Shown here one piece after another: positions 4,514 through 28,882 of a stretch of DNA of 28,882 bases; the first letter of the stretch is position 1; every line of letters begins with the position of its first letter. Under the pieces are notes generated by a model. That model worked only from the letters and a program-made list of their open reading frames with translations, was not told the origin of the DNA and ran no database searches. The stretch comes from a virus (Duplodnaviria; Caudoviricetes), in IMG/VR virus record IMGVR_UViG_3300047402_000037, positions 1 through 28,882 of that record, one strand, 5' to 3'. Both the position numbers and the translations under genes were made by a program.

Positions 4514-4890
4514 AGACCAAAGGCAAGGTCACACCACTACCCCGCATGATCTTCAACAAGACCGGGATCGAGCCGACGCAATTCCAGGTTTTGATCCGGC
4601 CGAGGAAGGACAGCGGCGAGATTGAACTGAAGGGCGGCTTCAAGCTCTACAAGCCCGACGAGACGCGCGAGCGCGACGAGCATGCCTCGATGGAGGGGGA
4701 AATGATCGATCTTTCGCCGCTCGCATTCACGTACGAGGAGTGGCCAGCGACCGCGCGGAAACCCCGTCCCGGCGATACCGTGATTTTTGCCCGCTACGCC
4801 GGGATCACCGTCAAGGGCAACGACGGCGCCGATTACCGGCTGATGAACGACAAGGACATCGTGGCCATCCGGGAGGCCGCGCATGTCTGA
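4510..4890 (+). CDS. GroES-like co-chaperonin
   Basis: 'IEPTQFQVLIRP', mobile-loop 'LKGGFKLY', 'PGDTVIFARYAG' and 'YRLMNDKDIVAI' match the GroES/Cpn10 pattern. Confidence 0.85.
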   Translation: MKTKGKVTPLPRMIFNKTGIEPTQFQVLIRPRKDSGEIELKGGFKLYKPDETRERDEHASMEGEMIDLSPLAFTYEEWPATARKPRPGDTVIFARYAGITVKGNDGADYRLMNDKDIVAIREAAHV

Positions 4891-27310: not shown

Positions 27311-27589
27311 TTACGCAGCAGGACGCGAGCAAGAGCGACGACGGCGATTTGCATCCGGGAACAATAGTTCCCAATCGCCTTGATCTATCCCGAGCACGTC
27401 AGGCTTGATCGTCTTGCCCAAGCGCTTCATGAGCAACGCAACCTGCATGTGCCGAGACGGCGGGATCGCTCCACGCAATCGCCAGTTGCAGATCGCTTGC
27501 GGGCTCAGTTCTTTGAATCGTGCCGCCGCCCCTTCCGGGCCATCGAGACATTCGATTAGGTCGGCAACCGTGTTGATGTCGTACTTCAT
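27311..27589 (-). CDS. cro: Cro-like HTH regulator
   Basis: 'LIECLDGPEGAAARF.ELSPQAICNWRLRGAIPP' is a YdaS/Cro-type HTH; divergent from the repressor. Confidence 0.85.
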   Translation of the reverse strand: MKYDINTVADLIECLDGPEGAAARFKELSPQAICNWRLRGAIPPSRHMQVALLMKRLGKTIKPDVLGIDQGDWELLFPDANRRRRSCSRPAA

Positions 27590-27596
27590 GAGGGGG

Positions 27597-27625
27597 ACAA
27601 TACTTCACCGATGGTGTATGGTCAA
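27597..27625 (-). promoter_or_regulatory. PR-like sigma70 promoter with operator in the spacer
   Basis: TTGACC-17 nt-TATTGT, 7 nt before the cro ATG; operator TTCACC-GAT-GGTGTA at 27604-27618. Confidence 0.8.
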
Positions 27626-27633
27626 CGGCGCTG

Positions 27634-27669
27634 TGGATCAATGGTGTGCAAAACTTAACGGACGGTGTA
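27634..27669. promoter_or_regulatory. two additional degenerate operators (OR2/OR3-like)
   Basis: TGGATC-AAT-GGTGTG (27634-27648) and TTAACG-GAC-GGTGTA (27655-27669) share the GGTGT half-site. Confidence 0.55.
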
Positions 27670-27681
27670 CTACGTCCGGAC

Positions 27682-28008
27682 ATGGCCGCCACCCGTCGAT
27701 CGCCCGATGCAAAAGAAGCCAACGCCGCCTTGCGAAAGGCCGTAGGAGAGCACTTGCGCGCCGTTAGGGAGGTGCTCGGGCTCGCGCAAGGCGAGTTTGG
27801 CCGCCGCGCAGGGTTGGCGACGAACACCTACAACATGATTGAAAACGGGACGAAATTGCCGTCCGTGCTAACTGCAATCGCCATTTGCGACGCGCATGGG
27901 CTGACGCTGGATTACGTCTTCCGGGGCGATCCGTCCGATCTCGCTCCGACGATTCGGCGGGCACTCGACGCGCTCCACACTGCGCGCCATCAATCTCCGA
28001 CAGGCTGA
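27682..28008 (+). CDS. cI: CI-like XRE-family repressor, HTH only (no S24 peptidase domain)
   Basis: 'HLRAVREVLGLAQGEFGRRAGLATNTYNMIENG..LPS…GLTLDYVFRG'; 108 aa from ATG 27682. Confidence 0.88.
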   Translation: MAATRRSPDAKEANAALRKAVGEHLRAVREVLGLAQGEFGRRAGLATNTYNMIENGTKLPSVLTAIAICDAHGLTLDYVFRGDPSDLAPTIRRALDALHTARHQSPTG

Positions 28009-28101
28009 CGGTCGCTCTGCGACATTTTGTCAGCAATGCGTAAGATAAGCCATTCGAAACACGGCCTTACGTAAGCACACACAAAAACTTGTGCACATCC
28101 G

Positions 28102-28155
28102 TTCACTGGCGGTGTATTTTCGTGTTTGACATGTACACCAATAGTGAATTATTGT
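28102..28155 (+). promoter_or_regulatory. PL-like sigma70 promoter with two operators
   Basis: TTGACA(28126-31)-18 nt-TATTGT(28150-55); operators TTCACT-GGC-GGTGTA (28102-16) and TACACC-AAT-AGTGAA (28134-48). Confidence 0.82.
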
Positions 28156-28161
28156 CCCTAC

Positions 28162-28234
28162 ATCACCGGGGCGCTGCCGTCCCACCAATGCCGGGTTTGC
28201 CCACCCGGTTTCGCTCTAGCGGCGCTCCGGTGAT
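28162..28234 (+). ncRNA. putative 73-nt structured leader RNA / sRNA
   Basis: 16-bp closing stem (28162-77/28219-34, with two G-U pairs valid on the + strand only) encloses hairpin CCGGGT/ACCCGG; starts at the predicted TSS. Confidence 0.6.
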
Positions 28235-28257
28235 CGGACAACAAGAGGCGGCATCAA

Positions 28258-28557
28258 ATGGCAAAAGCACCGACACCACCCAAAGGCAGACCCGTCCTGG
28301 TCACTACCGAATATCGCGGCGTGTTTTTCGGTTACGCCGACGACACGTCAGGCGACACGATCAAGCTCAATCGGGCCCGTAATATCCCGTATTGGGATGC
28401 GTCGGTGAAAGGTTTCCTCGGCCTTGCTGAGAGGGGGCCAAGCAAAGCGTGCCGCGTCGGCCCCGCAGCGGACATCGAGCTTCGCAAAATCACTTGCGTT
28501 GCGGAATGCACGAAAGTCGCTGTCGAGGCATGGGAGTCGGCACCATGGCGGTCGTGA
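28258..28557 (+). CDS. DUF6948-like protein (possible Sm-like fold)
   Basis: SD GAGG; 'VLVTTEYRGVFFG…IKLNRARNIPYW…GFLGLAERGP'. Confidence 0.75.
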   Translation: MAKAPTPPKGRPVLVTTEYRGVFFGYADDTSGDTIKLNRARNIPYWDASVKGFLGLAERGPSKACRVGPAADIELRKITCVAECTKVAVEAWESAPWRS

Positions 28558-28882
28558 TCCTGCGCGGTCAGATGCCGAGCCTCGCCGACGGCTACGGCTA
28601 CGGCTACGGCTACGGCTACGGCTTCGGCGACGGCTACGGCTTCGGCTATGGCGACGGCCTCGGCTACGGCTCCAACTACGGCGACGGCTCCGGCGACGGC
28701 TACGGCTCCGGCTTCGGCTACGGCGTTGGCCGCTACGGCTACAGCTACAGCGACGGCTATGGCGACGGCTATGGCGACGGCGACGGCGACGGCTCCGGCC
28801 TCGGCTACGGCTTCGGCACCGACGACGGCTCCGACGACGGCTCCGACGACGGCTCCGGCCTCGGCCTCGGCCTCGGCTATGG
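28545..28882 (+). CDS. Gly-X (GY/GD/GS/GF/GL) dipeptide-repeat protein, 3'-truncated
   Basis: SD GGGAG, ATG 28545: MAVVILRGQMPSLADGYGYGYGYGYGFGDGYGFGYGDGLGYGSNYGDGSGDG…; open to the window end; 6-bp GGCNNC periodicity from 28590. Confidence 0.85.
   Translation, partial: MAVVILRGQMPSLADGYGYGYGYGYGFGDGYGFGYGDGLGYGSNYGDGSGDGYGSGFGYGVGRYGYSYSDGYGDGYGDGDGDGSGLGYGFGTDDGSDDGSDDGSGLGLGLGY

Follow-up and report, generated by a model that had tools for sequence, protein, structure and literature searches.

A predicted Sm-fold protein and a glycine dipeptide-repeat protein encoded by a tightly linked, apparently optional phage gene pair

Two overlapping genes at the right end of a 28,882-nucleotide phage contig, analyzed whole (positions 1 to 28,882; here called the window), raise the question of why a phage would pair a small Pfam DUF6948 protein with an almost monotonous glycine-rich repeat. 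A preliminary description of this DNA proposed a three-part system, in which a structured leader RNA, an RNA-binding Sm-like ring, and a self-assembling partner act together under direct CI control. Which of these parts belong together, and what the pair might do, is addressed here. The features of the region are as follows.

27311 to 27589, minus strand: Cro-like gene, divergent from the repressor gene, with a weak PHROG repressor match (E 0.002); context, outside the cassette
27604 to 27618 and 27655 to 27669, no strand: two operator-like repeats, members of the same four-copy set as the two below
27646 to 28008, plus strand: CI-like helix-turn-helix (HTH) repressor gene (Pfam HTH_3, E 2e-10); context
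28102 to 28116 and 28134 to 28148, no strand: two operator-like repeats, putatively bound by the repressor
28126 to 28155, plus strand: sigma70-like early promoter (PL equivalent), 10/12 consensus positions, overlapping one operator-like repeat
28162 to 28234, plus strand: leader RNA, with a 16-bp outer stem and an inner hairpin at 28190 to 28209
28244 to 28253, plus strand: ribosome-binding site, which is also the left 10-nt direct repeat of the cassette; the right copy follows the ORF2 stop in locus L001, at position 4706
28258 to 28557, plus strand: ORF1, DUF6948 protein of 99 aa, a predicted Sm/LSm-like five-strand barrel
28532 to 28547, plus strand: coupling signal, with a Shine-Dalgarno-like GGGAG in the W92-E93 codons and the ORF2 start in the P96-W97 codons
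28545 to 28882, plus strand: ORF2, Gly-X repeat protein, X mostly Y, D, or S, with the repeat from 28590; cut by the contig end
28554 to 28577, plus strand: short pre-repeat motif (hydrophobic-hydrophobic-R-G-x-x-P), a candidate docking strand

ORF1 is a member of Pfam DUF6948 (PF22253; E 5e-21, 75 bits against a cut-off of 27, covering profile positions 2 to 85 of 85). ORF2 starts at ATG 28545, inside ORF1, which confirms the 13-nt overlap described earlier, and stays open for 112 codons to the window end. Its residues 16 to 112 comprise 42 G, 18 Y, 15 D, 9 S, 5 L, and 4 F and include 15 [G/S]Y[G/S] motifs; this copy is repeat alone, without a folded domain. The preliminary description called the tract nearly pure Gly-X over about 98 codons. 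A 97-aa tract does reach the window end, but the wording was slightly generous, since the tract is 43% Gly with several register breaks. The IMG/VR locus L001 is identical to window positions 28258 to 28882 (625/625 nt) and encodes a full-length ORF2 product of 139 aa with 56 G, 23 Y, 20 D, and 12 S (pI 4.05, versus 9.15 for ORF1). FUS-type domains carry [G/S]Y[G/S] motifs, and the resemblance claimed for ORF2 holds at the level of motif content, with 21 such motifs in the 139 aa. Because one public run contains both the window's upstream sequence and the downstream gene of L001 at matching depths, ORF2 of the window likely ends as it does in L001. In one run, a contig skips 162 nt in frame inside the repeat (L001, 4496 to 4659), which is either a length variant or an assembly collapse. 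Behind the pair, L001 continues with small ORFs, an ERF-family annealing protein, and a YqaJ exonuclease, to judge by its genes a typical early recombination operon.

The linkage of the two genes, which the preliminary description put forward as a check on the proposed module, extends well beyond this phage. A (G-X)5 run lies within 1 kb behind DUF6948 in 108 of 117 close loci (80 viral and 37 from prokaryote genomes), compared with 18 of 424 control 1-kb windows taken from upstream flanks. Of the nine misses, five have 32 nt or less of downstream DNA and a sixth runs out within an N-terminal domain of the partner type; in one more the Gly-rich partner is irregular, and the remaining two are partial DUF6948 matches lacking a repeat. 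A second, distant subfamily, about 25 to 30% identical to the window's DUF6948, has the pair in 87 of 90 loci, the exceptions being two loci without a repeat and one whose tract is degenerate and lies at the end of its contig. Overall, the pair co-occurs in about 95% of related phage loci; because the loci are related, p-values given here overstate independence. The DUF6948 family itself is very large and phage-borne (at least 8000 protein clusters at E ≤ 0.001), and the ESM Atlas returned only DUF6948 clusters and nothing once these were skipped. Among 400 sampled prokaryote genomes (two draws of largely the same genomes, treated as one sample), one new match besides the centre genome exceeded the cut-off, compared with 0 of 14 controls. 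By this distribution, the cassette appears to be phage-restricted and optional. In the cultured Iodobacter phage PhiPLPE, the DUF6948 homologue (phiPLPE_84) is annotated and the repeat ORF behind it is not, an example of the repeat gene being missed by annotators; repeat arrays also break assemblies, and 27 of 108 contigs end inside one.

A search for fusions of the two proteins returned 12 longer proteins of 218 to 2000 aa. In P0124 to P0126 an upstream Gly-rich ORF is read through into DUF6948, and P0133 has a truncated DUF6948 in frame with the repeat and a DUF7666-like domain. As all of the longer proteins could be products of gene calling or assembly, no Rosetta-stone fusion was counted.

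The junction between the two genes is itself constrained. Among relatives, the partner start codon usually lies inside the terminal Pro-Trp codons of DUF6948, and the preceding Trp-Glu codons supply a Shine-Dalgarno-like sequence. The terminal Pro codon is CCA or CCG in 81 of 89 genes, compared with 220 of 338 elsewhere, and CCC in 3 of 89 compared with 73 of 338 elsewhere (p = 1.6e-5, uncorrected for relatedness). Codon choice thus points to selection on the partner start codon at synonymous sites within the last Pro-Trp codons of DUF6948. The conserved start codon and the Shine-Dalgarno-like sequence indicate coupled translation of two separate proteins. A −1 frameshift fusion of the two ORFs was considered and rejected, as ATG/GTG is selected at the junction.

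The surroundings of the pair are less constant. In the window, the structured leader ahead of ORF1 is real, as first described: it folds at −44.8 kcal/mol (z −2.85), with 1 of 200 shuffles equally good. Operator-like repeats upstream of the pair give 4 matches against 0.16 expected, and the anatomy suggests that, in the window phage, the pair is the first item on a repressor-controlled early transcript. No peptidase domain was found in the CI-like repressor at 27646 to 28008, which consists of the HTH only. Among 108 relatives with enough upstream DNA, a repressor-like HTH gene ends 900 nt or less upstream in at least 11, a lower bound because the HTH profile was home-made. Strong upstream folding was seen in 12 of 112 relatives and is enriched beside HTH genes, being present in 5 of the 12 relatives with an adjacent HTH gene and in 7 of the 100 without one (p = 0.003). 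An exact scan for the inner hairpin identified two viral contigs, that of L001 and L336, and found nothing in metagenomes. The sister phage L336 has a third immunity region and the same leader (89% identical to the window), yet no pair; its leader runs straight into the gene that follows the pair in L001. The leader therefore belongs to the early transcript and not to the cassette. With repressor-like genes just upstream in only 11 of 108 relatives, CI control likewise drops out of the module, so the three-part system of leader, ring, and partner under CI is not supported.

This clean empty site in L336 also defines what moves. The 10-nt repeat is present twice in L001, ahead of ORF1 and behind ORF2, and once in L336, at the empty site. 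Two runs from two studies also contain a contig in which the leader is joined to the next gene in this way. Since the L336 site lies at the 10-nt repeat and the leader is retained, the pair is a block of roughly 720 bp that is gained or lost whole, the leader staying behind. Direct repeats of 8 nt or longer at the cassette ends are not a general feature (4 of 61 loci, versus 1.7% in controls), and the clean boundary is therefore shown for the L001/L336 lineage alone.

Several further observations concern the leader. Comparison of window positions 27311 to 28155 with L001 and L336 shows that the leader and flanking genes are common to all three, but that repressors, operators, and promoters are unrelated, a pattern that points to immunity-region swapping among the three sister phages with a boundary at the first base of the leader. 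Several temperate phages (window 28162 to 28234, L001, L002, L081, L096, L098, L099, L102, L158, and L336) have, right behind the early promoter, a long 5'-terminal stem that starts close to the predicted transcription start and encloses one or two inner hairpins. Their immunity regions and stem sequences differ, and the stems have no Rfam family. The recurring stem might be cut by RNase III, or it might serve as an antiterminator in cis, with the lambda N leader and HK022 put as parallels. The window's leader matched no Rfam family beyond a chance match, and an alignment of three leader sequences shows 2 one-sided changes and none that is compensatory. A pattern scan for its outer stem returned mostly chance hits, with promoter plus stem in 5 of 120.

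To assess the fold of DUF6948, we generated an AlphaFold2 model (pLDDT 90.9). It has five strands and a C-terminal helix, with a conserved helical insert of about 28 residues between strands 3 and 4 (loop L4). In VIA-align, Sm/LSm-type chains occupy ranks 1 to 36 among the matches listed, and MazF folds follow below at Z ≤ 3.6. The best match is the marine Sm-like protein 3by7 (Z 6.8, rmsd 3.0, 72 aligned; middling), which we take to be a putative cyanophage protein described as a pentamer. The Foldseek list consists of Sm/LSm chains (best E 0.012, probability 1.0; none at E ≤ 0.001). The LSm domains of Edc3 and LSM14 appear in the match lists at Z 3.8 to 4.7, below ring-forming LSm chains, and Hfq is absent among the structural matches listed. 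Sequence searches returned no PDB match at E ≤ 10 and no PHROG match. Gly G25 of strand 2 is invariant in 21/21 sequences from both subfamilies, and a conserved strand-2 Gly is described as an Sm feature (PMC3710371). The by-eye Sm-like call of the preliminary description thus held up at moderate strength: the models support an Sm/LSm-like fold for DUF6948.

This fold does not give function, as peptide-docking and ring-forming members are both known. Arg41 and Trp46 of DUF6948 are conserved in both subfamilies. The Sm uridine pocket is presumably formed by an Asn/aromatic pair in loop L3 and an Arg in loop L5; by-eye mapping, without superposition, places these at positions 33 and 34, which are D/T in one subfamily and K/E in the other, and at position 76, which is Arg in one and Thr in the other. 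The median net charge is +2, with values of 0 or less in 19% and 32% of the two subfamilies (113/119 and 115/120 proteins scored). Variable pocket-mapped positions and low net charge weaken RNA binding as a reading of DUF6948. A ring is plausible, because the best match, 3by7, is reportedly pentameric with the same helix arrangement; in the putative cyanophage Sm-like pentamer, as in DUF6948, the helix is C-terminal instead of N-terminal (PMC3710371). The LSm domains of Edc3 and LSM14, by comparison, are reported to form no ring and bind no RNA and to dock peptide motifs (PMC3877753).

Across loci, the X residues of the repeat are Y (1328), S (1037), D (809), and T (100), with few others, over lengths of 12 to 160 residues (median 72). 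Asp makes up a median of 12%, and Arg and Lys do not occur. One Gly codon accounts for at least 90% of the array in 95% of 118 loci, the style being GGC in 97, GGG in 18, and GGT in 3; Ser is nearly always TCC/TCT, with AGC in L253. Arrays are homogenised per phage, with rapid turnover of length. Because different codon styles yield the same residues, we favor slippage-driven turnover under protein-level selection, and a function of the repeat as DNA is largely rejected. Composition may in part reflect slippage history, since the Y, S, and D codons are single-step neighbours of TAC. GGA is almost absent from repeat Gly codons, and GGC dominates even in low-GC loci, unlike in the neighbouring DUF6948 gene. 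The Gly-X ORF of PhiPLPE (L238, 1164 to 1409) uses only GGC and C-ending codons, although its flanks are AT-rich. Matches of the repeat to Pfam TrAA12, KRTAP, and SGP were dismissed as compositional; nearly all fall under the cut-off.

Partners consist of the repeat alone, of the repeat with a C-terminal domain of 100 to 125 aa (34 loci), or of the repeat with N-terminal domains. The pre-repeat motif occurs in 69 of 106 close partners, versus 1.6% of control windows, for a pattern drawn from the same sequences; it is missing from the other 37 and was not seen by eye in 17 distant-subfamily partners. With this motif absent from distant partners and the flanking domains variable, the repeat itself is the constant element. 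Another exchangeable domain, which has no Pfam family and is marked by a Gly-Ala-Cys or Ala-Cys motif, is attached N-terminally in L006, L008, L018, L027, L045, L083, L085, L089, L104, L106, and L108 to L112 and C-terminally in L052, L055, and L067.

The domain that follows the repeat in 34 loci is DUF7666-like and precedes the repeat in L072, L082, and L090. The C-terminal alignment (33 sequences, one duplicate dropped) matches the N-terminal domains in HHalign at 94%, with Pfam DUF7666 itself below its cut-off. The fused-domain model (pLDDT 92) weakly matches the rifampicin ADP-ribosyltransferase Arr (Z 6.2, rmsd 3.1, 73 aligned). Among the best 50 matches listed, 36 are, judging from their titles, chains of PARP, Tpt1, Arr, or ADP-ribosylating toxins, the class of some of these ADP-ribosyltransferase (ART)-type chains being our presumption. 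Arr is also first in Foldseek, insignificantly (E 0.62, probability 0.33). By eye, the core strands carry W36-R37-S38, an invariant H75 on the second core strand, and an invariant K103; no canonical H-Y-E or R-S-E triad is evident, the last strand having Lys, not Glu. An ADP-ribosyltransferase-like fold for this domain is thus a weak, model-based lead rather than a result, and the fold would be common to Arr, Tpt1/KptA, PARP, and AcrIF11, from which the domain differs in its weak scores, its non-canonical catalytic positions, and its absence from the window's own partner. If the lead is real, it would link low-complexity repeats to NAD-centred phage-host conflict. Reported ADP-ribose acceptors include Ser, Thr, Tyr, and Asp (PMC10789625).

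The reading that we prefer, at a probability of roughly 0.4, is that the pair forms an optional cassette for conflict with the host: the Sm-fold protein would dock and cluster the multivalent Gly-X tract as a decoy or scaffold able to carry cargo. Both proteins would be made early, in a fixed ratio. DUF6948 would bind the tract or the pre-repeat motif through a free edge strand, as in the LSm domains of Edc3 and LSM14. The tract would offer dozens of Tyr, Ser, and Asp side chains, known ADP-ribose acceptors, and would carry the cargo domains, the window copy being the cargo-free form. The assembly might then soak up or misdirect a host defence or modifying enzyme. PADLOC returned no match at E ≤ 0.1 for either window protein or for the fused domain.

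Four other explanations compete with this one. A possible, though less probable, alternative is an RNA chaperone with a detached tail, in which DUF6948 would assemble into an Sm-type ring that binds and shields RNA, either early phage RNA or that of the host, and the acidic Gly-X protein would work in trans in the way of the acidic C-terminal tail of Hfq or of a FUS-like condensate former. The Sm/LSm fold, the contrast between a basic ORF1 and an acidic ORF2, conserved Arg41 and Trp46, and the 21 [G/S]Y[G/S] motifs of the full ORF2 protein are consistent with it, as are reports of autoregulation by the Hfq tail (PMC5606850) and of RNA stabilisation by the D25Y mutant of GoF, a T4 LSm-like protein (PMC12152347). 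The leader RNA, however, is independent of the pair, the positions mapped to the Sm RNA pocket are not conserved across subfamilies, 19 to 32% of members have a net charge of 0 or less, the repeat lacks Arg and Lys, the fused domains look unrelated to RNA chaperoning, and wild-type GoF is described as having little effect (PMC12152347). Another reading places the fused domains at the centre. We consider it unlikely that the ancestral partner was a small ART-like enzyme or NAD/ADP-ribose binder joined to a Tyr/Ser/Asp acceptor tract, with DUF6948 as its reader or regulator and cargo-free copies such as that in the window serving as acceptor decoys only. The presence of the DUF7666-like domain on either side of the repeat, the dominance of ART-type chains in the match list with Arr first in both searches, and the invariant His75 would fit; the middling Z, the lack of a significant Foldseek match and of a catalytic Glu, and the absence of the domain from most partners in close loci speak against it. 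A broader version, also improbable, would make the pair a widespread phage counter-defence: the Sm-fold protein would read a Gly-(Tyr/Ser/Asp) polymer that is a mass ADP-ribose acceptor, loaded by the fused ART-like domain or by host defence transferases, giving an NAD/ADP-ribose sink or a modification-controlled condensate. Such a sink would be the phage counterpart of PARP automodification.

Strict alternation of Gly with Tyr recalls silk- or amyloid-like polymers, which DUF6948 could keep soluble or nucleate. If the two depended on each other in the manner of a toxin and its antitoxin, their tight linkage would follow, and DUF6948 hardly ever occurs alone (2 of the 90 distant loci, and 2 partial matches in 117). 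The median of 12% Asp and lengths of 12 to 160 residues argue against a fixed fibre register, and we regard this explanation as rather doubtful. Least probable is that the repeat amounts to a hexanucleotide microsatellite that sits behind DUF6948, is mostly neutral, and has a translation product of no importance. One-codon Gly arrays in 95% of 118 loci, the near-uniform TCC/TCT Ser codons, and the 27 of 108 contigs ending inside arrays would fit it. Against it stand the start codon conserved at synonymous sites, the same amino acids being encoded in different styles (L253, for example, uses AGC for Ser), the in-frame fusion of the repeat to conserved domains, and its retention across distant subfamilies.

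Known systems place the host-conflict cassette between several precedents. Sm, LSm, and Hfq rings, 3by7 included, have the five-strand bent barrel, strand-2 Gly, and variable loop L4 that are predicted for DUF6948, which differs from them in its L4 insert of about 28 residues, in the lack of conservation at the positions mapped by eye to the RNA pocket, and in its obligate repeat partner. Our working analogy is Edc3 and LSM14 (Scd6), reported to have an LSm fold without an N-terminal helix, as in DUF6948, which could likewise dock linear motifs of a low-complexity partner; these are eukaryotic proteins described as binding helical leucine-rich motifs, whereas the DUF6948 partner is a Gly-X tract and not an amphipathic helix (PMC3877753). 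T4 GoF and MotB.1 as well as Frd.2 are, like DUF6948, early phage proteins with a predicted LSm-like fold, described as non-essential, and the portion of the report that treats them mentions no repeat partner (PMC12152347). The acidic C-terminal tail of Hfq is similar to ORF2 in lying next to an Sm core and in being acidic, rich in Tyr and Gly, and probably disordered (PMC5606850). Unlike that tail and FUS-type domains, ORF2 is a separate, coupled gene with a strict dipeptide period and exchangeable domains. Literature searches found no published function or partner for DUF6948, and searches for DUF7666, GYGDG phage repeats, and phage Gly-Tyr or dipeptide repeats with an Sm-like protein returned no relevant paper. 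The terms "Sm-like," "low complexity," and "decoy" are absent from the main text of PMC9503650, whose supplements might list an ART-like family. What appears to be new is the architecture of the gene pair, as both folds are already known; its role we infer. If DUF6948 binds a dipeptide-repeat polymer, the Sm fold would have a novel role in viruses of prokaryotes. Natural sister phages with and without the pair (L001 and L336), together with a cultured phage that carries it, make the module directly testable.

Two loci groups depart from the simple pair in minor ways. In L010 (4258 to 4566), the repeat ORF ends with a copy of the last residues of DUF6948 itself, a local junction duplication. 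In L239 (2301 to 2819) and L256, the pair is followed by additional ORFs of Gly-rich repeats, arranged in tandem.
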